This document shows positions 4,050 to 63,244 of a DNA stretch of 64,000 nt, piece by piece. The notes under the pieces are model-generated. The model saw only the letters and a list, made by a program, of their open reading frames with translations, made no database searches and had not been told where the DNA came from. Position 1 is the stretch's first letter, and the number at the start of each line of letters is the position of its first letter. The DNA comes from Minisyncoccota bacterium (GTDB taxonomy: Bacteria; Patescibacteriota; Minisyncoccia; Phycocordibacterales; UBA9973). The stretch is taken from assembly GCA_031413715.1 (NCBI GenBank), contig JANOFO010000010.1, positions 302 through 64,301 on the forward strand, given 5' to 3'. Made by a program: the position numbers and the translations under genes.

Positions 4050-5804
4050 TTATATCACTTCCGCTTGATAACACTTTTCGCAGTAAATTTTCTCAGGTCT
4101 ATCGGGAGTATACGGTGTCTCAAATTCTACTTGGCATTTCCCTTTGTGAGAATGATTAGTAAGATCACACATACAAGACCGCTGCCAAAGCTTCCAGGGC
4201 AATGTCCGCTTTGCTTGGCGTTCTGAATGTCGACAGTTGGGACAAAACGTAGGTAATGCGATGCCAAATCGCTTGTAGAAAACAAGTTCTTCTTTGCTTA
4301 TTTTAAATGCATAGGTACAAACTTCATTACATTCTGACTTATGCGCACAAGGCAAAACTTCATTGATTACCGTATCAGGAATATCATTGATCGCATCAGG
4401 GAGATCACCAAGGGTGAGAGTTGGCTGATGTTCTCGTTTGATAGGATCTCGCCAGCGGAATCCTTGGACTAAAACTTTTTCTTTCTCGATGGGAAAAAAT
4501 TCAAATGCTGCACTTTCATTATAAGCAAAGCGAGACAGATTGATTGGAAAATATTCTCCATATTTATAGACCGCTCCATTCCCTTCTATATAAGGCATCT
4601 CATTCATATGAGTGATAATCCTAGGCAGAAGTGCTTCGTATTCCTCTTTTGTATACTGCTTATTTAAAATGCAGTACTCTTTGTGCTTGATACTGGCACA
4701 ACCAAAGCAATTTTTGATATGACTAGGTCCGTCACAGTATGCAACAGTATCGGTATCACCAAGATTGTACGAAAAGAGGCAATGACTATTCCCTCGTCCG
4801 GCAACTGCAAACTCGTACGAAGATTCAGATCGCCCCGACATAGAGAAGTCATAGACATCAACAAGGTGGTTGGTAGTTATCGCTCCATATTTGAGGTTCT
4901 CACAATCTTGAATCGAGAAAGAATGTCGTACGTTTTTAGAATTAAAAATAGAATCACCCGTACAATTTTCAGACTGGAGGATGTTTGCATATTTATGGAT
5001 TGAATTCTTTATCAAGCTTTCATATTCATCATGGAGAGATTCAGCAAGGGATTGTTTACCGAGGCGATATTCAGTAATTTTTTCTTTGTAGGCTTCGGGA
5101 GTATATTGAGTATTGCGAAAAACATATGATTTATTGCGTAGATTAGAGGACATAAAGCAATTCGTGCAATTACTGCAGTCAAACAAGAATTGGGAATCAA
5201 TACACTGATGAGAGCGAGTCAGGGAGATACAGTTATAATTCCCTTTTGAATCAACAAGATCATAGCAGTTCTCGTCTTCGCGTATATTTGTACAGTCCAT
5301 GCACATTCGGTTGCCATTCTCACCTCCCCAAGAATAAAAAATATCTTCAGACCGAACAATCCCATAGGAAAGATATGTCCGTGAACTGCGATATATATAA
5401 TTAGAAAAAATAACTCCTTCGCCATTGTTGTTTTGATGTTCGAGGTGTATCTGAGGAACAGTCTTTAAAAGATCATAAAATTGCTCAAAGAATGGCCTTG
5501 AGAAATCATAGTCACGTCCACAATCCATCGCATCCCAATCATCAGAGAAATAACATTTCGTACAATACACAATAAAAGGAGAATCGGGGTGATACATAGA
5601 AAACATGGGGTCGCTGCAACGAGAACAATCTCGCTTGTAAAGTGATCGATGGTTAAGAGATGCGAGTCTTCGCCTCAATCGACAGTCTGGGCAGAACGTC
5701 GGAGGAGGAACATTCATTTTCGTATAAAAATCAAAATCTTCGGTTTCAATAATGAAATCTCGTTTACAATTCTGACAATTTTTGGTTTCTGGACTCATAA
5801 TCAT
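4050..5804 (-). CDS. cysteine-rich multi-zinc-ribbon protein, unknown function (paralog A)
   Basis: ~35 Cys, mostly in CxxC pairs; N-terminal CQNCK...FYTKMNVPPPTFCPDCRLRRRL and C-terminal FYKRFGIALPTFCPNCRHSERQ ribbons; clear paralog of 41887..43653. Confidence 0.6.
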   Translation of the reverse strand: MIMSPETKNCQNCKRDFIIETEDFDFYTKMNVPPPTFCPDCRLRRRLASLNHRSLYKRDCSRCSDPMFSMYHPDSPFIVYCTKCYFSDDWDAMDCGRDYDFSRPFFEQFYDLLKTVPQIHLEHQNNNGEGVIFSNYIYRSSRTYLSYGIVRSEDIFYSWGGENGNRMCMDCTNIREDENCYDLVDSKGNYNCISLTRSHQCIDSQFLFDCSNCTNCFMSSNLRNKSYVFRNTQYTPEAYKEKITEYRLGKQSLAESLHDEYESLIKNSIHKYANILQSENCTGDSIFNSKNVRHSFSIQDCENLKYGAITTNHLVDVYDFSMSGRSESSYEFAVAGRGNSHCLFSYNLGDTDTVAYCDGPSHIKNCFGCASIKHKEYCILNKQYTKEEYEALLPRIITHMNEMPYIEGNGAVYKYGEYFPINLSRFAYNESAAFEFFPIEKEKVLVQGFRWRDPIKREHQPTLTLGDLPDAINDIPDTVINEVLPCAHKSECNEVCTYAFKISKEELVFYKRFGIALPTFCPNCRHSERQAKRTLPWKLWQRSCMCDLTNHSHKGKCQVEFETPYTPDRPEKIYCEKCYQAEVI

Positions 5805-5831: not shown

Positions 5832-6254
5832 TTATTTCTGGTTCTTTTTATCCAAATATCTCTGCAAGATTAATGCGGCAGCGGACGCATCGACGGATGT
5901 AGCTTCCTGTTTGCTCACTTTGCGAGCATTGTTCACTTCTTTGCCACTTCTCCCCCGTGCTTCGACTGTCGTCATAAATTCTTTTTGAAAATAAATCGGC
6001 AGATCAAGCTCGGCTTCCAAGTTTCTTTTGAATTCTTCTATACTGCCCATAATCTTGTTTGGAGCACCAGAGAGATCATGAGACTCGCCGAGAACTATAC
6101 CTGCAATATTTTCTTCTCCACATATGTTATGAATAGTATCAACAAGTTCCATATTGTTCGGCACAATTTTATATGGAAAAGCCATCGTTCCTCCGTCGTC
6201 TGAAATCGCAATTCCTACTCTCTTTAAACCGTAATCTATAGCTAAATGCTTCAT
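5832..6254 (-). CDS. yqgF: YqgF/RuvX Holliday-junction-resolvase-like pre-16S rRNA nuclease
   Basis: MKHLAIDYGLKRVGIAISD N-terminus typical of YqgF. Confidence 0.8.
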   Translation of the reverse strand: MKHLAIDYGLKRVGIAISDDGGTMAFPYKIVPNNMELVDTIHNICGEENIAGIVLGESHDLSGAPNKIMGSIEEFKRNLEAELDLPIYFQKEFMTTVEARGRSGKEVNNARKVSKQEATSVDASAAALILQRYLDKKNQK

Positions 6255-6310
6255 CTATTATATAGACTATCATAATTGCGGGAAAAGGGTATTTCTGCTA
6301 TTATCTGCCT

Positions 6311-6538
6311 ATGGAAACATTTGGAGTAAGCAACATATGGGTCGTTGTTGTAGCACTAGCGTGGACGCTGCCATGGAAAGGCTATGCACTCTGGACTGCA
6401 TCAAAACAAGGGCACAAAAGGTGGTTTATCGCGCTCATTGTCTTGAATACTTTTGCACTACTAGATATTTTCTATATATTCTATATTGCCAAGAAGACTC
6501 CAAAAGATATCGGTGTCGCGCTAAAGACAAAAGTTTAA
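6311..6538 (+). CDS. small two-TM membrane protein
   Basis: Two hydrophobic helices; no family recognised. Confidence 0.3.
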   Translation: METFGVSNIWVVVVALAWTLPWKGYALWTASKQGHKRWFIALIVLNTFALLDIFYIFYIAKKTPKDIGVALKTKV

Positions 6539-6549
6539 AAATTAAATAT

Positions 6550-6636
6550 GGAAGCGTGGCGGAGTTGGTCTATCGCACTCGTCTTGAAAACGAGAGTCCC
6601 TTTAAAGGACCGTGAGTTCGAATCTCACCGCTTCCG
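6550..6636 (+). tRNA. tRNA-Ser (anticodon TGA), type II with long variable arm
   Basis: Acceptor ggaagcg/cgcttcc, anticodon stem ctcgt/acgag with loop cttgaaa, variable arm gtcc-ttta-aagg-ac, T-arm gtgag-ttcgaat-ctcac, discriminator G. Confidence 0.85.
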
Positions 6637-8199
6637 CAATACTGGTGAAGAGGTGGCGAAAGCCATCTCTCTTCCTTTATCTGCTTGGGTTTTTAGCAGT
6701 TCGTAATCTTGATTCAGCTTCGGTACCCATTCAACCAATAATTGAGCCGCATCTGTATAGAATCTCCTTATTTCAAGCCTGTTTTGCTGTAAGTTCGTAA
6801 AGATTTGAGAAAAGAGTAATCGCTTCTCATCATTGTTAGCTTTCTCATAAATTTCTCGTGCTTTGTACGCGAGTTCATGCACCGCAACTCCTAACTGTAA
6901 GTATTCATCGTTCTTGTCGCCACAACGAACCAGGGCGCTTTCAAGAGCCTCTTCCTCGGTTATCAAATCTCCAATCTTCCTCTCGAAAAATTCTGCTGGA
7001 GCCTCATGATTTATTTTTGCTTCATAGAGCTTATCCTTTTTGGTGCGAACACCTTGGAGTAGTCCATTGATGCGCTTTACGTCATTTTCGCGTTCAGTAA
7101 TCTGCTCACTGTGCTGACTTCTTAAAATATCTTCGATAGCCGAAAGTACACGCTCATCTTTTGGGGCGATGCTATCGAAAATATCAATGAGCTGTAATTC
7201 AACCCTGTCTTCTCGAATACCTGTCTTTTGAGGGCAGTTCTTGAAGGCGGTACTGTTATTACAGTGCCCGTACCAATTACCTTTCTTTTGATACCACGTA
7301 ACCATCCCACCACATCCCTCACAGAAAATCTTGCTCTTAAATAAAGCGTTGTGCTTTTGATACTTTGGATTCTTCATCTGTCGTCTCAAGACAAGTTGCA
7401 CTTTCTCAAAAACATCCCTAGCGACAAGCGACTCGTGAGTGCCAGGGTACACTTCTCCTAGCCATCGTATTTTGCCGATATAGAAAGGGTCTTGGAGTAA
7501 GTTATAGATTCGAGATTTCAATAGCATTTTGCCGCTCGTATTGCGCAATCCAGCATCGTAAAACTCTTTTTCAAGTCTCTTGAGTGAATAATCTCCCGTT
7601 GCGTACAACTCAAACATTTTCTTTATATGCACGGCAACAGCGTCATTTGGCACGTGGATTTTGTGTCCTTTCTCTCCGTCACACCTGTAACCGATAAGTG
7701 GCTTGGCAGGTAATCCACCTTGTGCGATTTTTTCCTTTTGCCCCTTCTTCACTTCTTCTGAAAGATTTGTGACATATTTTTTTGCTAGGACAATTTCAAT
7801 ATCCCATCTGAATTTCTCATCAGATTTGGCATTTTTATGAATGACAAGATTTTGTTTTACAAAATGGATTTGTCTTTCCTCATTAGCCTCAAGCCAATCG
7901 TTGATAGCTAAAGCGTCTTTAAGGTTTCTGGTAAGACGGTCAACTTTTTCGCAAAGGATATTAGTGACTTTATTTTTCTCCGTGAATTTAATCATCTCAT
8001 CAAATACCTTACGTTGCTTTGCTCCGCTTGCTGATTCTGCCATCGAAAATATCTTTACGACGGTCAACTTCTTTTTATTATCAGCATACTCTTTGAGTAA
8101 TTTTTCCTGTGAATCGAGAGAATACCCAGTTTCTTCCTGTTCTCTTGATGAGACTCGACAGTACAGTACGGCTTTTGGTTTTAGTTGGTTAGTAGTCAT
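6625..8199 (-). CDS. large serine recombinase (integrase); its 3' end overlaps the tRNA-Ser 3' end
   Basis: Resolvase catalytic domain (VLYCRVSSREQ, DRLTRN), recombinase domain, zinc ribbon (CEGCGG...HCNN...CP), C-terminal coiled coil; 524 aa. Confidence 0.85.
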   Translation of the reverse strand: MTTNQLKPKAVLYCRVSSREQEETGYSLDSQEKLLKEYADNKKKLTVVKIFSMAESASGAKQRKVFDEMIKFTEKNKVTNILCEKVDRLTRNLKDALAINDWLEANEERQIHFVKQNLVIHKNAKSDEKFRWDIEIVLAKKYVTNLSEEVKKGQKEKIAQGGLPAKPLIGYRCDGEKGHKIHVPNDAVAVHIKKMFELYATGDYSLKRLEKEFYDAGLRNTSGKMLLKSRIYNLLQDPFYIGKIRWLGEVYPGTHESLVARDVFEKVQLVLRRQMKNPKYQKHNALFKSKIFCEGCGGMVTWYQKKGNWYGHCNNSTAFKNCPQKTGIREDRVELQLIDIFDSIAPKDERVLSAIEDILRSQHSEQITERENDVKRINGLLQGVRTKKDKLYEAKINHEAPAEFFERKIGDLITEEEALESALVRCGDKNDEYLQLGVAVHELAYKAREIYEKANNDEKRLLFSQIFTNLQQNRLEIRRFYTDAAQLLVEWVPKLNQDYELLKTQADKGREMAFATSSPVLRKR

Positions 8200-8216
8200 A
8201 AATTTAATAGGGAATG

Positions 8217-8573
8217 TTATTTCTTGGTGAAGTGTCTTGTAAGAAGCACTGTCACAAGAATCGTTATTGTTAAAATAAGCGCGAACACGATTACATTTCC
8301 ATATTCATTTATGCCTACTTGTGAAGGCGCGTTCTCTGCGGTAGTTGTCGGTTGAATTTTCAAGGCATCAAGCTCACTTCGGATTTCTTGGACTTGTGTT
8401 TTCAGTTCAGTATTTTCTTGCTGGAGATTTGAGCTTGGTTGCTGATTCTGCTGTCTTTGATAGTAAGTCTGTATACACGTTTGAAACGCAGCCTCATCAG
8501 TGGTCTTACAACCTGTTGCGGTATCTTGATATTCTTTTTTGAAGTGAAGTAGGGTTGCCATTGTTGCTGGCAC
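8217..8573 (-). CDS. hypothetical Gln-rich coiled-coil protein with C-terminal TM helix
   Basis: ORF only; compositional features. Confidence 0.3.
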   Translation of the reverse strand: MPATMATLLHFKKEYQDTATGCKTTDEAAFQTCIQTYYQRQQNQQPSSNLQQENTELKTQVQEIRSELDALKIQPTTTAENAPSQVGINEYGNVIVFALILTITILVTVLLTRHFTKK

Positions 8574-8940
8574 CTACAGCTATCCATAATGCAAAAAGGA
8601 GTAGCCGAGGAGCCTGCTACCCACAAGATTGAATTGCACGAGGCAACCAATTGCGGAGGTCTCGACTACTCCTTTTCGCCCACAATTGGGGCTTAAAAAA
8701 GCAGAGACCTCGTGCACTGTTCAAAACTTATGGGTAGCATAGTAAGTATAGCAAGATGGCAGGTTTTGGCAAGTCTACTTTTTCAGATGTGGATAACGCA
8801 TCTCTTTGTAGTAGGCGTTGAAAACTTCCATAACAGTGTTTCGGAATTTCTCTGCGGGGCTGATTTCACTCCTAATTACTTTTTTATTTTTTCGCATAAT
8901 TCTAGTTGGTTAAAAATAATAATTACTATAGGGGGCAATT

Positions 8941-10686
8941 TTACCCATCATCAGCCCCAAGGGATGTTAGGGAGCAGAACATGCTGTTTTTACCGCCCTT
9001 CTTTGTGAAAAGCTGTGAGTCCTTAATCATCTCCTCAATGGCGGTCTTGAATGTGGAATGACCTGTTTTTGCACCAGTCTTTTCAACCAATTTCCATATC
9101 TCACTTTTGATTAAAGGTGTTGGCGATGCCTCTAATACTTGTTTAATAGCGACCTTCAACACTTCTTTCTTGCTCGTTTTTCCTTTGCTTCGTCCTCCAT
9201 ATTCAAAGTGCCCCTTAACGCTATCGGAGTGAAAGTTGACTACAAAAGGTTCCATTTCCTGCGCTTCTCGTAATTTATTTTGGTATATAACGACACTGGC
9301 ATCATTGCCTTTTCTATCAACTGCAAGATGACAATCAACCTGCGCAAGAATATCTGATGAGCCACGCATTTCTTGAGACGAGGTGCTAGTATCGTTTCCT
9401 TTCTTACGATGATGGTGTATGACGATGACAGCAATACCATGATTAGTAATTTCTTTTAGAAATTTCATCACTCCGCGCATTTCAGTTGCTGAATTTTCAT
9501 CTGCATTGTGAATGCAATTAAGAGCATCAAAAATGACAAGTTCAATGCTTTTACTTTTGGCATATTCAATGAGTTTTCCTACGCTCTCCTTTGTGAGCAT
9601 AAAATCTTTTTTTGAAGAGATAAAAATAGGCAGCTCTGCATTCTGTAAAAGCAACTTCGCTCTATCTTTCAAAATCCGTGGATGGTTCTCTTCATCAATA
9701 ATTAGCACTGGGCTTTGCCTAGTCTGAAATTCACCAAATACTTTTTCGCCCCCAGCTATCTTTAATGCAATATCCAGAGTAATAAAAGTCTTATAAGACC
9801 TCGGTACTCCAGAAATGATTGTGAGAGCTTCGTGTGGAATCAAACTCTCCACAAGCCACTCTGTATTTTTATATTCAGTCGTAACTAGCTGTGAAAGTGG
9901 TATTGCATCTATGCCACGGCTAGTTTTAGATTCGGTTTTTCCCGCTCTCTGTTTCAACTCTCGATTAGCGATACTGTTGAAGACTGTTTTTAATTCTTTC
10001 TCTGGAAGAGGTGGCTTATTATTTTGATTCCAGCGCTGCATACCAAACCACACCATCTCCCAAGTATCTTCTGGAAGATAGCCAAGCATTTTCCCTGCCA
10101 TCTGCGCCGATACCTCATTTCTACTTCCTTCCAGCACTGGGCTTTCGATGGTGGTTTTCCAGTCGGCAGGTTTTTCATTTTCTTCTTCAAGTACCCATTG
10201 TGGCAGGTCTGCAAAGCTAGAATCATCGGGAGAAATAATCCACTCGTAGTAATTTCCAGATTTGTGTAAGGACGGAGGCATTACTACATATCCGCCATCA
10301 GCGCGGATGTCTACTTTAGGTAAAATACCTCCTCTGGTTTTTACTTCTTTTCCTGGATGTTTATAAAAATAATGCGAACCACCTCGACCTGTTCGTGAGA
10401 CTACCGTAGGCGGTAATTCACGGGAGATACTTTCAGTAGTGTCTATATCCACAACAACAATTCCAGATATAGCGCCTGTAATAACTCCTATGTTTGCTTT
10501 TGGGAATTGCTTAAACCATTCCTCGATTTGTTCCTTTGAAGCACGGGTAGCTTGAAATGGCTTCCATTCTTTAATAAGTGGGGTTTTCCCAGCCCCTCTT
10601 ATTGGAATCACAGAGAATCCCAAGTCGTAATACCGTAGTGCAGCTATTAGGTTTTGGTTGTTATTTTCCATAAAATTATTTGGCAT
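8941..10686 (-). CDS. bifunctional primase-polymerase (Prim-Pol N-terminal domain) fused to a RecA-like AAA_25/DnaB-like ATPase; mobile-element replication protein
   Basis: N-terminal YYDLGFSVIPI...GK.P prim-pol motif; Walker A SGVPRSYKTFITLD and Walker B VLIIDEEN in the C-terminal half. Confidence 0.7.
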   Translation of the reverse strand: MPNNFMENNNQNLIAALRYYDLGFSVIPIRGAGKTPLIKEWKPFQATRASKEQIEEWFKQFPKANIGVITGAISGIVVVDIDTTESISRELPPTVVSRTGRGGSHYFYKHPGKEVKTRGGILPKVDIRADGGYVVMPPSLHKSGNYYEWIISPDDSSFADLPQWVLEEENEKPADWKTTIESPVLEGSRNEVSAQMAGKMLGYLPEDTWEMVWFGMQRWNQNNKPPLPEKELKTVFNSIANRELKQRAGKTESKTSRGIDAIPLSQLVTTEYKNTEWLVESLIPHEALTIISGVPRSYKTFITLDIALKIAGGEKVFGEFQTRQSPVLIIDEENHPRILKDRAKLLLQNAELPIFISSKKDFMLTKESVGKLIEYAKSKSIELVIFDALNCIHNADENSATEMRGVMKFLKEITNHGIAVIVIHHHRKKGNDTSTSSQEMRGSSDILAQVDCHLAVDRKGNDASVVIYQNKLREAQEMEPFVVNFHSDSVKGHFEYGGRSKGKTSKKEVLKVAIKQVLEASPTPLIKSEIWKLVEKTGAKTGHSTFKTAIEEMIKDSQLFTKKGGKNSMFCSLTSLGADDG

Positions 10687-10859: not shown

Positions 10860-11102
10860 TTATTTGAGGGAATACAATCTATTTTTAAGCTGGCGAAAAT
10901 TTTGAAAAAGCGTTTGAATCGGAACATTAACAGCCTTGTCCTGCCAAAAGTCCTCAATCACTTTCTTGATGTCGTCAGTTGCGGAAAATACAAACTCGAC
11001 CCGCTTTTCGCTGGTTCGCTCCAAATCTAGCAACTCAAATTTGAGTGTGAGCAGCAAGGCTGCCAAGCCAGTGTCGCCGATGAATATCTTTGCGTTTTCC
11101 AT
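10860..11102 (-). CDS. small hypothetical protein
   Basis: ORF in a tight operon with the prim-pol gene. Confidence 0.3.
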   Translation of the reverse strand: MENAKIFIGDTGLAALLLTLKFELLDLERTSEKRVEFVFSATDDIKKVIEDFWQDKAVNVPIQTLFQNFRQLKNRLYSLK

Positions 11103-11254: not shown

Positions 11255-11980
11255 TTAAGAGCGTATCACTAACATAAAACCATTTTGTGCCAGAATTTCG
11301 ATTGGTGCACCAATTTTTTTAATAGCATCTCTAAAATCTTGGACGGCATCTCTAACGCTTCGGTCAGTAGTGACTGGCTTATCGTCATATTCTTCGGAAT
11401 TTTTTACAAATTTACCTGCGATTGCCAGCTCCCAGATGGGTTTAAAAGCGCCTTCACGTCCAACAATTCCTTTTTTCTCTATCCGTCGAGCTTCCCACAA
11501 TAAGGCAAACATTTCCCCTCTACCTTTAGCTTTCTGGAATTTATGAAATTTATTACCGTGTGATATGCGACAAGCCTTTTTGTCAAAGAATACAGATACC
11601 TCATTTGTTACTGATTGACTTGTTTCTGGTACTGGCAATTTACTTTTATTTATCAAAATCTCATATACTTCAATATCCTCATCCGTCTGCGTATTTTCGC
11701 GTGCAACAATAAATTCTTTCTTTCCATCCTCTTTAATTTCAAATGTGCCCCAACAATACTTATATTTATTCAAAAAACCCTTCTCTTTAAGACGAAGTAA
11801 GGTGTTACGAGTATCAGGTAGGTCAAAATCTTTGGCGGTTAAGTGCTCAATGGGTACATAGAAAGGATTGGTTTTATAAGTGTGAAAATGCTCGGAAATA
11901 ATCCCCGTAAGCAGTGAGTCTTTTTCTTCGATACTCATCTCCATTTTCATAATTAAAGTCATTATATCAGAATATGCCAA
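11255..11980 (-). CDS. hypothetical protein, possible N-terminal winged-helix domain
   Basis: ORF; helix-rich N-terminus; no confident family. Confidence 0.35.
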   Translation of the reverse strand: MAYSDIMTLIMKMEMSIEEKDSLLTGIISEHFHTYKTNPFYVPIEHLTAKDFDLPDTRNTLLRLKEKGFLNKYKYCWGTFEIKEDGKKEFIVARENTQTDEDIEVYEILINKSKLPVPETSQSVTNEVSVFFDKKACRISHGNKFHKFQKAKGRGEMFALLWEARRIEKKGIVGREGAFKPIWELAIAGKFVKNSEEYDDKPVTTDRSVRDAVQDFRDAIKKIGAPIEILAQNGFMLVIRS

Positions 11981-12027
11981 TACTTGCCACAGGTGAATAA
12001 AAGAGCTACACTACAAAGGCATATCTT

Positions 12028-12222
12028 ATGAAAGAAGAAAAATACTTAACACTAAAACAAGCAGCCGAAAAATTGCATGTAAAGATGCGTACAATTTACC
12101 GTTATGTTGCCGAGAAAGAACTGCGCGCCACAAAAATCGGTTCTTGGAGAGTTGAGGAGAAAGACCTTCAGGATTTTATTGACTCCCGCTCAAACATTGG
12201 GCAACGTAAACGCTCCAAGTAG
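12028..12222 (+). CDS. excisionase-family / MerR-like HTH DNA-binding protein
   Basis: LTLKQAAEKLHVKMRTIYRYVAEKELRATKIGSWRVEEKDL is an HTH_17 excisionase-type helix-turn-helix. Confidence 0.6.
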   Translation: MKEEKYLTLKQAAEKLHVKMRTIYRYVAEKELRATKIGSWRVEEKDLQDFIDSRSNIGQRKRSK

Positions 12223-12228
12223 TCGTCT

Positions 12229-15200
12229 ATGAGTACATCACCCTACAATCGAGGTTCAGAATGGAGGAAGTGGGATTTGCAGATTCACACGCCTGCTTCC
12301 GCGCTAAATAACGGTTTCGGTTCAGACTGGGATACATACTTACAAAAACTCTTCAAAGCAGCAATAAAAGAAGACATTGCTGCGGTTGGTGTTACTGACT
12401 ATTTCCACATCGAGGGATACAAAAAGGTTAAATCTTACCTAGGTGACACCGCCAAGATGAAGGCACTATTTTCCGATGAAGAAAGAGAAGCCATTTCAAA
12501 AATACTTATTTTGCCGAACGTAGAGTTCAGACTCTTTCCAATAAATGGCAGCCGTCTAAATTTTCACGTCATATTTTCTGACACGGTTTCAGAGAGAGAT
12601 ATTGAAGATAATTTTCTTCATAACCTTCACTTCGTTCGGGAAGGTAAACCATTTGAGCCAGATGAAAAGAGCAAGCTTAAAATTGGCAACCTTGAGGAAC
12701 TTGGAAAAAAACTTAAAAGCGAGCATGAGCCTTTCCGAACAGACAGTGACCTATTCGTTGGAATGAAAAATGCCGTAGTTTCCGATGAAGAAATTTCAGA
12801 AGTATTGAGTGCAAGACCATCTGCCTTTGCAGGTAAATACGTGCTAGTAATGCCATGCGATGAGGACTTGAGCACTATTCCCTGGGATGGACAAGACCAC
12901 AACACCCGCAAGAAGATGGTACAAAAAACCAACTTCTTTCTCTCATCAAACAGGAATACTATCGACTGGGGTTTGGGCAAGAAACATGAAAATTCAGAAG
13001 ATTTCAAAAATGAATTCAAGTCTTATAAACCTTGTTTGTGGAGTTCTGATGCGCATGACTTTGATAAATTATTCAAACCCGATGAAAATCGTTTTTGTTG
13101 GGTAAAAGCTGACCCCACGTTTGCTGGTCTTCGCCAAATCATTAACGAACCTGAACAGAGAGCTTTCGTTGGAGAACAGCCCCCAAACTATAAGTATGAC
13201 CATCTAGTCATAGAAAAAATTAGTATCCCCACTTCAAATGGATGGTTTAGTGAAAATCTGGAATTGGAACTAAACAGAGACTTGGTAACCATTATTGGTG
13301 GCAGAGGTTCTGGTAAGTCCGCCCTAGCAGAGATGATTGCCTATGGAGGAGGAAGTTGGAGTGGAGGCGAAGAAGCCTTTGTTACGAAAGCCAGTGACCA
13401 CGCACAGGGTATTGAAGGTACGGAAATTACTCTTACCTGGAGTGATGGGCACACAACCACATTTCGTGTAGGCGAAAACCAGGGCGATGAGAAAAGTATT
13501 CGCTATCTTTCTCAAAACGAAATTGAAAGACTTTGCTCACATAAGAATAGTAAAGTTCTTCTTGAACAGATTGAAAGTGTTATTTTCCAAGCTTTGGATG
13601 AGACCGAACGAATGGGCACCTCATCATTTTCTGAACTCACTTCTAAAACCCTAAAGGGATTTAAATTAGAAAAGGAACAGGAAGTGAGAAAGATAAAATC
13701 TAGCGCAAATAATCTTGCATCACTACTCGAAGCAATACGACAGAAACCAGAAAAAGAGAGAACTCTTAAAGATAAAGATGTTGAGTTGAAAAAGCTCAAA
13801 AAGAGTCTCCCTGAACTTCCCGCAGAAGACAAGAAGGGTCAAGACGAACTTGCATCATTGTTATCATTAAAAACAAAGTTTGATGAGAAAATTATCGGAC
13901 TCCAAGCAAAAATTGCCGACCTTTCTGAAGTTACAACAAAGATAGGTCTTTTCCGTAGTGATGTAACGAAATTCGAGAAGGATGTAAATGTTTCAGTTAA
14001 AAAACTTCTCCCAGACTTTGGCTTATTCGCTGTGGGTCTCGATACTTCGAAGCTTGAAGGAGCAATAAAAAAAGAGAGCGGTGAAGTCGCTGACGCGCTA
14101 AAAGCATTGAAAGAGGGCGACAAAAATAAGAACGCTCAACTTTTGGGTATTGAAGTTGCAGAACTAGTATTTCCGAATGCCACAAAACTTGCAGAGGCAA
14201 TAAAGAAAAAACAGGAAGAAACTAAAGCTTCCGAGACTACTAAAATTAAGTACCAACAACAGAAAAAGACGATTGCTGAACTAGAAGCAGTAATAAAGTC
14301 ACTAGAAGTTGAAATAAAGAAAATCAATGAAGAAAGTCTGCCTGAAAGTGAAAAGGCAAAAGCTGATTGTGTAGAGGCTTATTGTGCATACATCGCTATT
14401 CTTGAACGAGAAAAGACAGAGCTTGAGAAACTTTATGAACCATTACAGAGAAATCTCCAGTCAGGTACAGAAACTAATAAGAGATTGGAATTTGAAGCAC
14501 GTCTTGATTTTGAGGTTGAGAATCATATCGAGAGAGGGTTAGGAATAATTGACCGTAATAAAAAAGGTAACTTTAAAGATAAACCAGCGTTAAAAGAAGC
14601 GTTAGAAAAATTCTGGAGCAATATCAAGAAGGATGGATTTTCCACCACAAAAATAAAGGAAGAGCTTGCCGTTCTTGATTCACAGTTTCAAGTTTATGAA
14701 GGTAAACCACGAGATGTTCAAGAACAACTACGTGCTGGCTACGGCGTGGGAGATTTCTATGAATGGTTATTTGACCCAACAAATGTAGATGTTGTCTCTA
14801 CAATCAATTTTGACAAAACAGACCTCTATCTTCTCTCACCTGGCAAGAAAGGAATCGTTCTACTTATTCTTTTCTTGCAAATAGATGGTGACGATACGCG
14901 CCCACTCATCATAGACCAGCCAGAAGAGAATCTAGACAATCTGTCTGTATACCAAGATTTGATTACTTTCTTCAAGGAAAGGAAGCTTTACCGTCAAATT
15001 TTTATTGTTACTCACAACCCTAACCTTGTAGTTAACACGGATGCAGAGCAAGTAATCGTAGCCAACTATAACGGCACTGGTACACCTCGCATTCAATACT
15101 CTGCTGGGTCACTTGAGAATCAAGCCGCTGAATTGCCAGGTGTTGAACTGGAAGATTTAGAGGACGGCATTATTGAGCAGGTCTGCAAAATTCTTGAAGG

Positions 15201-15267
15201 TGGAGAAACTGCGTTTGAAAGTCGTAAGAGGAAATACGAACTGTCAGTAAAAAGCTTCAAAAAGTAA
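12229..15267 (+). CDS. PHP-domain phosphoesterase fused to a coiled-coil ABC/SMC-like ATPase; Ppl-like candidate anti-phage protein
   Basis: PHP motifs WDLQIHTPAS, VGVTDYFH, NFHVIF, WSSDAHDF; Walker A GGRGSGKS; ~500 aa K/E-rich coiled coil; signature LSPGKKG, Walker B LIIDQPEENLD, H-loop VTHNP. Confidence 0.65.
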   Translation: MSTSPYNRGSEWRKWDLQIHTPASALNNGFGSDWDTYLQKLFKAAIKEDIAAVGVTDYFHIEGYKKVKSYLGDTAKMKALFSDEEREAISKILILPNVEFRLFPINGSRLNFHVIFSDTVSERDIEDNFLHNLHFVREGKPFEPDEKSKLKIGNLEELGKKLKSEHEPFRTDSDLFVGMKNAVVSDEEISEVLSARPSAFAGKYVLVMPCDEDLSTIPWDGQDHNTRKKMVQKTNFFLSSNRNTIDWGLGKKHENSEDFKNEFKSYKPCLWSSDAHDFDKLFKPDENRFCWVKADPTFAGLRQIINEPEQRAFVGEQPPNYKYDHLVIEKISIPTSNGWFSENLELELNRDLVTIIGGRGSGKSALAEMIAYGGGSWSGGEEAFVTKASDHAQGIEGTEITLTWSDGHTTTFRVGENQGDEKSIRYLSQNEIERLCSHKNSKVLLEQIESVIFQALDETERMGTSSFSELTSKTLKGFKLEKEQEVRKIKSSANNLASLLEAIRQKPEKERTLKDKDVELKKLKKSLPELPAEDKKGQDELASLLSLKTKFDEKIIGLQAKIADLSEVTTKIGLFRSDVTKFEKDVNVSVKKLLPDFGLFAVGLDTSKLEGAIKKESGEVADALKALKEGDKNKNAQLLGIEVAELVFPNATKLAEAIKKKQEETKASETTKIKYQQQKKTIAELEAVIKSLEVEIKKINEESLPESEKAKADCVEAYCAYIAILEREKTELEKLYEPLQRNLQSGTETNKRLEFEARLDFEVENHIERGLGIIDRNKKGNFKDKPALKEALEKFWSNIKKDGFSTTKIKEELAVLDSQFQVYEGKPRDVQEQLRAGYGVGDFYEWLFDPTNVDVVSTINFDKTDLYLLSPGKKGIVLLILFLQIDGDDTRPLIIDQPEENLDNLSVYQDLITFFKERKLYRQIFIVTHNPNLVVNTDAEQVIVANYNGTGTPRIQYSAGSLENQAAELPGVELEDLEDGIIEQVCKILEGGETAFESRKRKYELSVKSFKK

Positions 15268-15295: not shown

Positions 15296-15324
15296 TTGAC
15301 ATATACCCCTAGGGGGTATATACT
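15296..15324 (+). promoter_or_regulatory. sigma70-like promoter (TTGACA-17-TATACT) with embedded CsoR-type operator palindrome ATATACCCCTAGGGGGTATAT
   Basis: Perfect 21-bp GC-tract palindrome at 15301-15321 sits exactly between the -35 and -10 hexamers; the csoR ATG is 8 nt after the -10. Confidence 0.55.
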
Positions 15325-41886: not shown

Positions 41887-43653
41887 TTAGATTACTTCTT
41901 GTTGATAACAACCTTCACAATAGACAATTTCTGGTCGATTCGATTCATAACTTGTCTGAAACTTATTTGGACATCTATTTTCATGATTATGTTTCAAAAC
42001 TTCACACATACATTGTCTACTCCAGAGTTGAATTGGGTTTCTAAGTTGTACTCTATCGTTATGTCTACTGTTAGGACATTTACGAGGAATAGGTAAATTC
42101 ATTCTTTTGTAAAAAGATAACTCCTGAGGAAGGATTTTAAATGCTTTTGTGCAGTTATGATTCATAGCTTGCACTGAATCCGTATCCCAAGATTCACATA
42201 ATATAATGTCATTGATTATATTATCTTCTGTTTCTTTTATAGTATATGGTAATTCGTTCCATGACTTAGTAGGGGTATAATTCTTCTCTCCTGTTTCTTT
42301 CCATTGATACCCCTTATTTTGTGCTTCATTTTTATCTAATGGGAAAAACTCTTGCGCAGTGGATTCATTATACGAAAATGAAGAAAGTTCCAATGGGAAG
42401 AATTCTCCATACTGATATTCTCGTCCGTATGAATCAATATAAGGCATATCTTTCATATGTTGGCGAATTTTAGGTACTAATTCATCATATTCTTCCTTAG
42501 AATATTGTTTATTCAAAATACAGTACTGCTTTCCTCGTACTCCGATACAGCCAAATAAATGGGCAGAACTTGCTATACCGTAGCAATACTCTACATCGCG
42601 AACATTTGAAACTGCCTGCACTGTAAACCTGACATTTGCACCGCCATCGCCAAGCAATAGTGTTTCATATACCATTTCAACATTTTCTCCATACTCAGTA
42701 TAGTCATAACAGTCTCTTGAAGTTTTTGTGCTTGCAAATTGACAGTATTTGCAATCTTCAGCACCAACCATCTCATAAGACACAAGGGTATTTTTAGAAT
42801 TCTGTATATAGTCACCAGAACTATTTACATTATTTCTACTATGCATGTACTTCTGTGGATACTTTAGCCAGAGTTCTTGGGCTTCTTTATAATACTTCTG
42901 GATATTTTGGTAATTTGATAAGTCTAATTCTTTCAGTTTCTCTTCGTAATCCTCTTTTGAATACTGCTGATTAAAAATACAATATTTTTGATTTCGTAGA
43001 TTTACACACCCTACGCAATCTGTACAGTTCATGCAATTCTTTGAAAAGTAGATGTTTGAACATTCTTCACAATCCACTGAGTATAAATTTTTGTAGCCTT
43101 TTGTAATGTTTACTGACTCATAACACAAGTCTGATTTTTGGAGCATTAACACATCTTGACTGTCATTGGACATCTTTAATCCACTAGCATACATGCACCT
43201 CTCATTATGATCAGCATGGAATACCATATAACAATTCTTGAGATATCCGGCAAGATTATTATAATCACTATCAACAATAGTCTGATAATGAAGAAAAAGA
43301 CTTTGTACTGCCGCTTTTTCTTGCAATTCTTTTAACTGTTCAAAGAAAGGTTTTGAGAAATCGTAATTTGTTCCACTCTCAAGTTGATCCCAATTATCAC
43401 TCCACCAACATGCAGGACAGAAGACTTTTCTATTTACATTTGGTCCATACACAGAAAGTATGTCCTTATTACAGAGTCCACAAATACGTTTATATAAATA
43501 GCGTTCATTTCGAAAGACTAGTCTTCTTACAAGTCTGCATTCCGGACACCATGTTGGTGAAGGAACTTTTATCTTTTCGTAAAATGAAAAATCATCAGAC
43601 TCAATATTAAAGGAATTTTTACAGTTTTGGCAGTTCCGAGTTTTTTGATCCAT
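41887..43653 (-). CDS. cysteine-rich multi-zinc-ribbon protein (paralog B)
   Basis: Same architecture and conserved blocks as 4050..5804 (CQNCK..F.IE..DF.FY.K..VP.PT.CP.CRL.RRL ... CILNKQY[TS]KEEY ... CE.CYQ.EVI). Confidence 0.6.
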   Translation of the reverse strand: MDQKTRNCQNCKNSFNIESDDFSFYEKIKVPSPTWCPECRLVRRLVFRNERYLYKRICGLCNKDILSVYGPNVNRKVFCPACWWSDNWDQLESGTNYDFSKPFFEQLKELQEKAAVQSLFLHYQTIVDSDYNNLAGYLKNCYMVFHADHNERCMYASGLKMSNDSQDVLMLQKSDLCYESVNITKGYKNLYSVDCEECSNIYFSKNCMNCTDCVGCVNLRNQKYCIFNQQYSKEDYEEKLKELDLSNYQNIQKYYKEAQELWLKYPQKYMHSRNNVNSSGDYIQNSKNTLVSYEMVGAEDCKYCQFASTKTSRDCYDYTEYGENVEMVYETLLLGDGGANVRFTVQAVSNVRDVEYCYGIASSAHLFGCIGVRGKQYCILNKQYSKEEYDELVPKIRQHMKDMPYIDSYGREYQYGEFFPLELSSFSYNESTAQEFFPLDKNEAQNKGYQWKETGEKNYTPTKSWNELPYTIKETEDNIINDIILCESWDTDSVQAMNHNCTKAFKILPQELSFYKRMNLPIPRKCPNSRHNDRVQLRNPIQLWSRQCMCEVLKHNHENRCPNKFQTSYESNRPEIVYCEGCYQQEVI

Positions 43654-61882: not shown

Positions 61883-63244
61883 TCATTTAAACATAATTCG
61901 TATTTTTTCTATCTCTTGTAATAATGATGGATCAGTTTTTAAATCATCTCGTATTTTTAAATGAGAGTGTATGACCGTTGTATGATCCCTACCCCCCATT
62001 TTTTGTCCTATAAGTGGATATGAGATATTAAAATCTTCCCGTAGTATATACATCGCTACTTGACGCGCCCGAACGATCTCTTTTCGGCGGGTTTTTTCGT
62101 AAATTATATCCTCTGTTATTCCATACTGATCAGCGATAATACGTACGATATCTTTAATAGCAACGGTTTTCTTGGGTTTGATATTATTTTTAATTAATGT
62201 TTTAACCTCATTCAAACCCAGAGATTTATTTTTAAGCTCTGACTGGCAGATAATGGTATTAAGGCTACCCTCCAATTCGCGGATATTACCCTCTAAAGAT
62301 GTTGCCAAATATGCTACGACATCAGGTTCGACAATGCAGCTCGTAGACTCAAATTTCGCTTTTATAATAGCCACTCTAGATTCATAATCCGGCTCTACGA
62401 TCTGAACGGTCATACCCGAGGCAAACCTAGACTGTAGCCGATCTTCTAATCCTTGGATGAAGTTCGGGTGTTTGTCGGATGAGAATATTATTTGTTTGTT
62501 GCTTTCATAGAGAGTATTAAACAGATGGAAGAGTTCTTCTTGCGTCTTATCCTTACCGGATATGAACTGAATATCGTCCATGATGATAACATCGTATTTG
62601 CGATACTTCTCCTTAAAAGAATTTGGATTCTTGTTTTGGATTGAATTTATATAATCGATTGCAAAACGTTCCAAGCTTACGTAATATATCTTTTTCCCTG
62701 GGTGCTTCACTTTTATTGTGTTTCCAATAGCTTGAATCATATGAGTCTTACCAAGTCCTGTTCCGCCATAAATGAAGAATGGGTTATAATTTTGCCCAGG
62801 ATTTGTAATAATGGCCTGTGCGACAGCATACGCAAGTTCATTGAAAGGTCCTACAATAAAGGAATTAAAATTATATTTAGGATTTAAATTATCATCTTTG
62901 TTTATATAAAGATCACCAAGAGGTAATTCTTTATTTATATTTATAACTGTCTTCACTATCTCATCATCGGAAGATTTATTTGTTTCTGTGTGTTTAGAAA
63001 TTATATACTCAATACTTCTGATACTATCTTCATGAGTAATGAGAGTTTTTAATATGAGTTTATGAAATTTATTATACAACCAGTCCTTAACGAATTCATT
63101 TGGTACCCCAATATAGAGTGTACCTGTATCTTCTTTAACAATAGATGTATTCTTAAACCAGGTAGTGAAATTAGCCTTTGATATATTTTGTTCTATCTCG
63201 GTGAGACTTTTAGTCCACAACTCTTTTGTATTCATAGTGCGCAT
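61883..63244 (-). CDS. dnaA: chromosomal replication initiator DnaA
   Basis: AAA+ Walker A GGTGLGKTH; C-terminal DNA-binding HTTVIHSHLKI. Confidence 0.9.
   Translation of the reverse strand: MRTMNTKELWTKSLTEIEQNISKANFTTWFKNTSIVKEDTGTLYIGVPNEFVKDWLYNKFHKLILKTLITHEDSIRSIEYIISKHTETNKSSDDEIVKTVININKELPLGDLYINKDDNLNPKYNFNSFIVGPFNELAYAVAQAIITNPGQNYNPFFIYGGTGLGKTHMIQAIGNTIKVKHPGKKIYYVSLERFAIDYINSIQNKNPNSFKEKYRKYDVIIMDDIQFISGKDKTQEELFHLFNTLYESNKQIIFSSDKHPNFIQGLEDRLQSRFASGMTVQIVEPDYESRVAIIKAKFESTSCIVEPDVVAYLATSLEGNIRELEGSLNTIICQSELKNKSLGLNEVKTLIKNNIKPKKTVAIKDIVRIIADQYGITEDIIYEKTRRKEIVRARQVAMYILREDFNISYPLIGQKMGGRDHTTVIHSHLKIRDDLKTDPSLLQEIEKIRIMFK

Follow-up and report, generated by a model that had tools for sequence, protein, structure and literature searches.

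Ppl, the system of Gao et al. 2020, is a single-gene anti-phage defence that joins a polymerase/histidinol-phosphatase (PHP) domain to an ATPase (PMC11482910), and it acts as a 3'-5' exonuclease on single-stranded DNA that is released by the depletion of nucleoside triphosphates (NTPs) together with 3'-OH ends (PMC12904381). The primary paper on this mechanism is that of Xu et al. (Mol Cell 2026), as cited in PMC13434339. The present analysis concerns a relative of Ppl, a 1012-residue protein of the TrlF family that is encoded in a stretch of 64,000 nucleotides from a Minisyncoccota bacterium (GenBank assembly GCA_031413715.1, contig JANOFO010000010.1, positions 302 to 64,301 of the forward strand). 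This whole stretch is referred to below as the window, and positions are given in its numbering. The protein fuses a PHP nuclease domain to an SMC/Rad50-like ATP-binding cassette (ABC) ATPase, is by profile comparison homologous to Ppl along almost its whole length, and is encoded on what looks like a small integrative element; a role as a defence gene is plausible for it.

The TrlF family takes its name from the temperature restriction locus (TRL) of Photorhabdus laumondii, an operon of the order trlR-trlF-trlG that arrests growth upon its induction at 36 °C and whose deletion is harmless (PMC7554251). In that study TrlG is annotated as RecG, TrlR is a regulator of 79 residues, and trlF carries the annotation 'histidinol phosphatase'; phage are never mentioned, and plasmid pYR3 is cited as syntenic (PMC7554251). 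A literature search returned no paper on the function of TrlF beyond the Photorhabdus work.

Membership of the window protein in this family is established by the NCBIfam model NF045780 (TrlF_fam_ATP, 'TrlF family AAA-like ATPase'), which it matches with 628.2 bits (cutoff 350, E = 4e-188). This alignment is full length, with residues 8-1004 covering model positions 1-944 of 944, and the match is far beyond chance, given this E-value, the more than 1,600 homologs, and the 1,797 clusters formed at 50% identity from matches at E <= 1e-30. Other models fall well short: the NCBIfam Spaf_1101 model scores 130 bits (cutoff 475) and the Rad50 model NF003034 only 12.1 bits (cutoff 700), while Pfam yields weak SMC_N (35.5 bits) and AAA_23 (28.6 bits, cutoff 27) signals alone. 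The family is thus a named one, PGAP (the Prokaryotic Genome Annotation Pipeline) already labels plasmid copies 'TrlF family AAA-like ATPase', and PGAP or NCBIfam would annotate the present gene in the same way, so that no new type of system is involved. Some close TrlF homologs (P0007-P0010, P0014, P0016) also carry a precomputed match to PF27605, an accession that may represent a new Pfam family covering a portion of TrlF.

A preliminary description of this DNA had called the protein Ppl-like, and the comparison with Ppl bears this out as homology, though not as a family assignment. The reference was the Ppl encoded on an E. coli IncF plasmid (WP_015059139.1, 891 residues, PGAP-annotated). 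BLASTP aligns the two proteins in three collinear blocks, which correspond to PHP motif I, to the segment from SDAH through Walker A, and to the signature, Walker B, H-loop and C-terminal EGGE.AF..R motifs; the C-terminal block is the strongest, at 35% identity (E = 4e-18). With hhalign the alignment extends over 625 columns at a probability of 99.7% (E = 6.4e-26), so that the homology of TrlF and Ppl spans nearly the entire proteins, whose domain order is the same. Nevertheless, the window protein reaches just 107.4 bits on the Ppl equivalog model NF042955, whose cutoff is 1000, with its best stretch at residues 862-1000. Ppl is also its best match in PADLOC, where the score of 86.8 bits arises mostly from the C-terminal ~140 residues. 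Ten diverse TrlF proteins behave alike, with 543-710 bits on the TrlF model but no more than 93-152 bits on that of Ppl, and TrlF is therefore a sister family of Ppl and separate from Ppl proper.

The domain organization was read from an AlphaFold model of the full-length protein, which was built on 84 homologs and has a mean predicted local distance difference test (pLDDT) score of 88.4 and a predicted template modelling (pTM) score of 0.74; a model of the N-terminal region alone was mediocre (pLDDT 59) and was set aside in favor of it. The model comprises an alpha/beta barrel at residues ~12-325, an ABC head made up of two segments (326-466 and 746-1012), and an antiparallel coiled coil between the two lobes of the head. 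This is the architecture of the TrlF family, an N-terminal PHP domain followed by an ABC/SMC-like ATPase that is interrupted by a coiled coil, and the barrel has the distorted alpha/beta form of the PHP fold. Structure prediction had been put forward earlier as a check on the PHP fold and the Rad50-like head, and both are found; all eight motifs that had been quoted are likewise present in the protein. Two lengths require revision, however. The PHP region, which had been placed in the N-terminal ~290 residues, extends to ~325, and the coiled coil, which had been estimated at ~500 residues, measures ~280 in the model (467-745), as the span from Walker A to the signature also holds globular segments of the head.

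Conservation was evaluated over 139 sequences, namely 137 representatives at no more than 50% identity, the window protein, and Ppl. The putative metal ligands of the PHP domain are Gln18 (usually a histidine), His20, Asp57, Glu99, His113, Asp274, and His276, and all of these other than Gln18 are 96-100% conserved. The full catalytic motif set of TrlF is present in the window protein (HxH...D...E...H...DxH, Walker A, Q-loop, signature, DQPE, D-loop and H-loop), the sole deviation being Gln18, and nuclease activity is predicted for it. Were the deviation disabling, the window copy would be catalytically impaired, either decaying or kept for regulation only, and its DLQIH sequence does stand where 108 of 131 representatives have a histidine at the first position of motif I. 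Yet this explanation is very improbable: glutamine occupies the same position in 22 of the 131, which are diverse and include independent, unrelated lineages (L013, L020, P0002), and for this reason the substitution is, on the alignment, a tolerated variant and no mark of decay. All other ligands and the ATPase motifs are intact, and the open reading frame (ORF) is full length and free of frameshifts.

In the ATPase, the N-terminal lobe contributes Lys363, which is present in 139 of 139 sequences, and Gln429 (138/139). Within the C-terminal lobe, Ser870, Asp896 and Asp903 are found in all 139 and His929 in 133. The intervening coiled coil is rich in lysine (17%), glutamate (14%) and leucine (13%), its apex is the least conserved part, and no CxxC zinc hook occurs in this region in any of the 84 homologs. 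The earlier view of the protein as a fused SbcD/SbcC therefore survives as a functional analogy only, because the nuclease is of the PHP and not the calcineurin-type phosphoesterase kind and the zinc hook is lacking.

A further feature of the head is the sequence DQPE (residues 896-899, nt 14914-14925). In canonical ABC ATPases the residue that follows the Walker B aspartate is the catalytic glutamate, and its change to glutamine traps the nucleotide-bound state. In the TrlF set, including Ppl, this residue is a glutamine in 133 of 139 sequences (Gln897), and a glutamate stands two positions further on (Glu899, 133/139, with aspartate in the other six). Because glutamine stands where canonical ABC ATPases have their catalytic glutamate, the sequence suggests that the TrlF head senses nucleotide instead of turning it over, a reading which fits the published inhibition of Ppl by NTPs.

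Together, these observations would best be explained if TrlF worked in the manner of Ppl, as a defence exonuclease that attacks DNA ends under nucleotide control, acts alone and is carried in the window as cargo of a tRNA-Ser-linked element, and this proposal is held to be moderately probable. In such a mechanism, TrlF would dimerise through its nucleotide-bound ABC heads, with nucleotide binding serving as a sensor and not as a motor, since glutamine replaces the catalytic glutamate. At normal NTP levels the protein would hold its PHP exonuclease in check. Upon infection, when NTPs are depleted and free DNA 3' ends appear, its exonuclease would break down DNA that is invading or being replicated, and the propagation of phage or plasmid would be halted. 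Both the NTP gating and the defence phenotype of TrlF are what we infer from Ppl. Four alternatives were weighed, and by falling likelihood they are a growth-arrest or addiction function, a part in the DNA transactions of the element itself, a housekeeping role in repair, and the impaired copy already discussed.

Several points weigh against the proposal of a Ppl-like defence nuclease. The window protein carries glutamine for the first histidine of PHP motif I, the Pfam PHP family PF02811 gives no match to it at E <= 0.1, and searches of PDB sequences with the whole protein and with an N-terminal profile returned nothing meaningful. Of the family models that the preliminary description had proposed as a check, AAA_23 lies above its cutoff, PADLOC has Ppl as its best match, and Pfam gives no hit for PHP. 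The window protein and Ppl are no more than ~23-35% identical, and both models of Ppl, from PADLOC and from NCBIfam, match mostly the C-terminal ~140 residues; a transfer of mechanism from Ppl is therefore uncertain. The literature search found no TrlF-family protein that has been shown to protect against phage, and the evidence from TrlF neighbourhoods, given below, is qualitative and uncontrolled. Finally, the sole experimental paper on the family reports no trlF phenotype, and all suppressors of the arrest mapped to trlG (PMC7554251).

This last study also bears on the first alternative, that TrlF belongs to a module for growth arrest or addiction, or one of a toxin-like kind, whose purpose is the mobile element or the response to stress. 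The family was named after an operon that arrests growth and can be deleted harmlessly (PMC7554251), TrlF is carried on plasmids and integrative elements, and a small regulator gene lies upstream of it in the window as in trlR-trlF. However, the arrest in Photorhabdus needed trlG and not trlF, and neither the window nor the 84 other loci hold a TrlG/Abi_2-like gene, Abi_2 being the abortive-infection family of the neighbouring gene on Yersinia ruckeri plasmid pYR3. Growth arrest is moreover a typical read-out of an abortive-infection defence that has activated itself, so that this unlikely alternative largely overlaps with the defence proposal. The 'temperature restriction' phenotype of Photorhabdus might itself be the autoimmunity of a defence system. 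On the Y. ruckeri plasmids pYR3 and pYR4 TrlF adjoins an Abi_2 gene and a phospholipase D gene, and the Abi_2 neighbour speaks for the defence proposal. On pYR3, TrlF (6001-8703) lies 380 nt downstream of the co-oriented gene for the Abi_2 protein (4572-5621), which we infer to be a homolog of TrlG.

TrlF is widespread. Of two word-indexed searches, one returned more than 1,600 homologs and the other more than 4,500, and the clusters counted above come from an exhaustive search. Species-representative genomes account for at least 586 matches, in the Candidate Phyla Radiation (CPR), Proteobacteria, Actinomycetota, Bacteroidota, Acidobacteriota, and one archaeon. At least 180 plasmid records and 26 IMG/VR contigs hold a near-full-length TrlF. 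Among metagenome-assembled genomes of the CPR the family is common, which weakens the earlier argument that the gene is of interest because defence is rarely documented in CPR-like genomes. In one clade, identity stays at 84-98% between proteins from Rhizobium, Agrobacterium, Ensifer, Mesorhizobium, Bradyrhizobium, Sphingobium, Camelimonas, Nitrosomonas, and a Sedimenticola symbiont, and such identity implies very recent transfer between genera on a common mobile element. An enrichment of TrlF at prophage ends was considered and rejected, since the figure behind it, 9 of 26 viral-contig copies at a distance of no more than 3 kb from a contig end, is uncontrolled and too weak to serve as evidence.

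The surroundings of TrlF are those of mobile and defence DNA. Across 84 loci, the 135 nearest neighbours are rich in Phage_integrase, ResIII, SNF2, HSDR_N, Methylase_S, Resolvase, nSTAND3, RES, DDE transposase, and TrwB domains, and PADLOC matches among the neighbours comprise type I and type III restriction-modification, AriA-like, mad5, and PDC-S73 components. No neighbour gene is conserved in the 84 loci, in agreement with the single-gene organization that had been proposed, and when the window is compared with the contigs of homologs at 82%, 67%, and 49% identity, TrlF is the only gene they share. The 82%-identical homolog (L001) has a co-oriented gene 5-6 nt downstream (6600-7451) that encodes 283 residues, has no Pfam match, is absent from the window, and may be a lineage-specific accessory partner.

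It is against this setting that a housekeeping role has to be judged, in which TrlF would repair double-strand breaks or hairpins for the host and so replace SbcCD/Mre11-Rad50 in a reduced CPR genome. The union of a nuclease with a Rad50-like ATPase speaks for it, and CPR genomes are indeed reduced and often lack standard repair genes. Such a role is nonetheless hardly probable. The distribution is patchy and runs through plasmids, prophages, and islands, synteny is missing even for the homolog at 82% identity, the coiled coil has no zinc hook, the Rad50 model gives 12 bits against a cutoff of 700, and the gene sits inside a recombinase-bearing element and not among core genes. Furthermore, neither Mre11/SbcD nor another repair partner was found in the window or among the 135 nearest neighbours of the 84 loci. 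The preliminary description had named two outcomes that would speak against its interpretation, a lack of PHP or ABC ATPase evidence and homologs placed consistently in core repair operons. Instead, both domains are present and the neighbourhoods are of the mobile or defence type, with no repair operon.

The element that carries TrlF in the window is outlined in Table 1. The recombinase-bearing island that had been noted is recovered, with a tRNA-Ser gene, a large serine recombinase, and a Prim-Pol/AAA_25 replication protein. The tRNA-Ser gene is probably the integration site and the left border of the element, and the 3' end of the recombinase gene overlaps its 3' end by 13 nt (6625-6637). 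A search of the window for attachment sites revealed neither a direct repeat of the 3' end of tRNA-Ser nor any other convincing repeat that bounds the island, as is expected when an element uses a serine recombinase. No virion genes are present, and the whole looks like a small integrative, self-replicating element and not a prophage. TrlF would be cargo of this element, alongside the recombinase, the Prim-Pol/helicase-type protein, and an excisionase-type helix-turn-helix (HTH) protein.

Table 1. Features of the TrlF gene, its product, and the element in the window
Feature	Position (nt)	Strand	Residues	Details
tRNA-Ser(TGA)	6550..6637	+		ARAGORN, Rfam
Large serine recombinase	6625..8199	-	524 aa	Pfam Resolvase + Recombinase + Zn_ribbon_recom; phrog_95 integrase, E = 1e-69
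Primase/helicase-type replication protein	8941..10686	-	581 aa	Prim-Pol + PriCT_1 + AAA_25 (Pfam); multiple PHROG DNA primase/polymerase families
DUF5659 protein	10860..11102	-		divergent from HTH-TrlF
ORF	11255..11980	-	241 aa	no match in Pfam, NCBIfam, PADLOC or PHROGs; divergent from HTH-TrlF
Weak sigma-70-like promoter match	11984..12012	+		TTGCCA-17-TACACT; 9/12 positions; 5' of HTH gene
HTH_17/excisionase-family gene	12028..12222	+	64 aa	Pfam, NCBIfam and PHROG matches
TrlF-family gene	12229..15267	+	1012 aa	ATG start; PHP nuclease fused to SMC/Rad50-like ABC ATPase
PHP domain	12229..13203	+	1-325	
PHP motif DLQIHT			16-21	
PHP motif VTDYFH			55-60	
PHP motif FHVIF			112-116	
PHP motif SDAH			273-276	
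ABC head, N-terminal lobe	13204..13626	+	326-466	Pfam AAA_23, SMC_N; structural matches
Walker A GGRGSGKS	13297-13320	+	357-364	
Q-loop			Q429	in N-terminal ABC lobe
Antiparallel coiled-coil insertion	13627..14463	+	467-745	secondary structure of AlphaFold model
Coiled-coil arm 1			~467-593	
Coiled-coil apex			~594-606	
Coiled-coil arm 2			~607-744	
ABC head, C-terminal lobe	14464..15264	+	746-1012	
Signature LSPGKKG	14833-14853	+	869-875	
Walker B/D-loop	14902-14937	+	893-903 (LIIDQPEENLD)	PLIIDQPEENLD
H-loop VTHNP	15007-15021	+	927-931	
C-terminal motif EGGE.AF..R				within C-terminal ABC lobe

Given this company, TrlF might instead serve the DNA transactions of the element itself, by acting on replication intermediates, in recombination, or in SMC-like partition, as a fused analogue of SbcCD or RecN. 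The adjacent Prim-Pol/helicase, recombinase, and excisionase-like HTH genes agree with this, the structural relatives of the TrlF model include RecF, RecN, Rad50, and SMC, and some phage records label weak TrlF relatives 'chromosome partition protein'. Such a function is improbable, however, as TrlF occurs on unrelated types of element and in chromosomal locations where no partner for replication or partition is conserved, and its closest characterised homolog, Ppl, is a defence protein. In addition, just one of 50,697 sequenced phage records contains more than the C-terminal ~150 residues of TrlF, and that match is partial (58%).

The TrlF gene begins 6 nt after the stop codon of the small HTH gene, as the preliminary description had reported. 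The excisionase-type assignment of the 64-residue product is also upheld, with 55.6 bits on Pfam HTH_17 (PF12728, cutoff 27), 40.7 bits on TIGR01764 (excise, cutoff 28.8), and the PHROG label 'excisionase and transcriptional regulator'. It is probably a local regulator, an excisionase of the element, or both, and the gene is probably co-transcribed with TrlF or controls it. The HTH gene and the 241-residue ORF diverge across an intergenic region of 47 nt which holds the promoter-like match of Table 1; since the total of sigma-70-like sites in the region does not exceed the shuffle expectation, this match is only suggestive. HTH and TrlF as a conserved two-gene module were ruled out, as an HTH homolog stands beside TrlF in 0 of 83 other loci, and no other family of small upstream ORFs accompanies TrlF in the loci examined. 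The upstream HTH gene is thus a real feature of the window, but no conserved companion of TrlF.

On the 3' side, TrlF is followed by csoR, copA, and further genes of a copper/metal cluster, which is preceded by a promoter-like site of its own and a palindromic candidate operator. The near-consensus promoter TTGACA-17-TATACT lies at 15296-15324, directly past the TrlF stop codon, and is overlapped by a perfect palindrome, ATATACCCCTAGGGGGTATAT, at 15301-15321, upstream of csoR-copA. From its sequence and position this palindrome looks like a candidate CsoR operator. Because promoter and palindrome overlap 15296-15324, the listed start of the csoR ORF (TTG at 15296) is probably too far upstream.

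The window is chromosomal, as it carries DnaA, PolA, PBP1A, and PilB/PilM, and the nearest named relatives of its PolA, at 71-77% identity, belong to Patescibacteria, Paceibacterota, and Nomurabacteria. The dnaA gene lies near the right end (61883..63244, minus strand), and the probable origin of chromosomal replication is thus ~50 kb away from the island. A GC-rich stretch at 25.5-28.5 kb was considered as ribosomal RNA and ruled out. To the left of the island, a cysteine-rich protein of ~585 residues with no family match is encoded at 4050..5804 (minus strand), and a paralog at 41887..43653 (minus strand); its motifs include DDWDAMDC, MCMDCTNI, SNCTNCFM, and EKIYCEKC. Metagenomes hold at least 582 relatives at 40-49% identity, and these often form tandem arrays of 2-6 copies. 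The protein thus represents a multi-copy family of Patescibacteria, and the left-flank gene (584 residues) is for that reason uninformative in the search for an empty integration site.

The significance of these findings lies in the placement of TrlF firmly beside Ppl, by folds, motifs, and solitary mobile context, which supplies a large mobile family with a concrete and testable mechanism by way of a sister family whose mechanism is published. The glutamine after the Walker B aspartate, invariant in both families, suggests a nucleotide-sensor ATPase and fits the NTP gating of Ppl, and the window offers an example from Patescibacteria of an integrative element that carries a candidate defence gene of the nuclease type. 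As a joint statement, TrlF would be a distinct, widespread, single-gene, Ppl-like anti-phage or anti-plasmid family with an E-to-Q sensor head, the Photorhabdus phenotype would be autoimmunity, and the window copy would be HTH-controlled defence cargo; the chances that all of this holds are judged to be about even.

Among known systems, other SMC-like defence ATPases, such as JetC (Wadjet), LmuB (Lamassu), AriA (PARIS), and GajA (Gabija), differ from TrlF in that TrlF has a PHP domain fused in cis; the partners or nucleases of such systems are of the Mre11/SbcD, Toprim, or Cap4 types. Likewise, the nuclease of Rad50/SbcC-Mre11/SbcD is a separate calcineurin-like partner, and compared with Rad50/SMC-like systems in general, TrlF has no zinc hook or hinge, a much shorter coiled coil, and a Walker B motif that reads DQPE and not DE. 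In comparison with stand-alone PHP enzymes and domains (RNase AM/YciV, EndoQ, TM0559, PsfC, and the PHP domains of Pol III alpha/PolC), the TrlF domain is too divergent for PF02811, has a glutamine in motif I, and is fused to an SMC-like ATPase.

TrlF of the TRL operon belongs to the same length class (~990 residues) and combines the same PHP domain, split ABC head, coiled coil, and conserved motifs, and its 'histidinol phosphatase' label reflects the PHP domain. In Photorhabdus, however, it is one of three genes in an operon, whereas the window gene has no trlG-like gene with it and the downstream csoR has a promoter of its own. To TrlF of enterobacterial plasmids the window protein is ~28-29% identical, and it differs by QxH in motif I. 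Ppl is alike in several respects. Both proteins consist of a PHP nuclease followed by an NTPase into which a helical segment is inserted, the genes of both stand alone on mobile DNA, and they share the motifs GS.W.K.D.H.HTP, SDAH, W.K..P.F.GL, G.RGSGKS, SPG.KG, DQPE..LD, and EGGE.AF.SR. TrlF is ~120 residues longer, and the phage-defence role and biochemistry that have been reported for Ppl are predicted for TrlF by homology.

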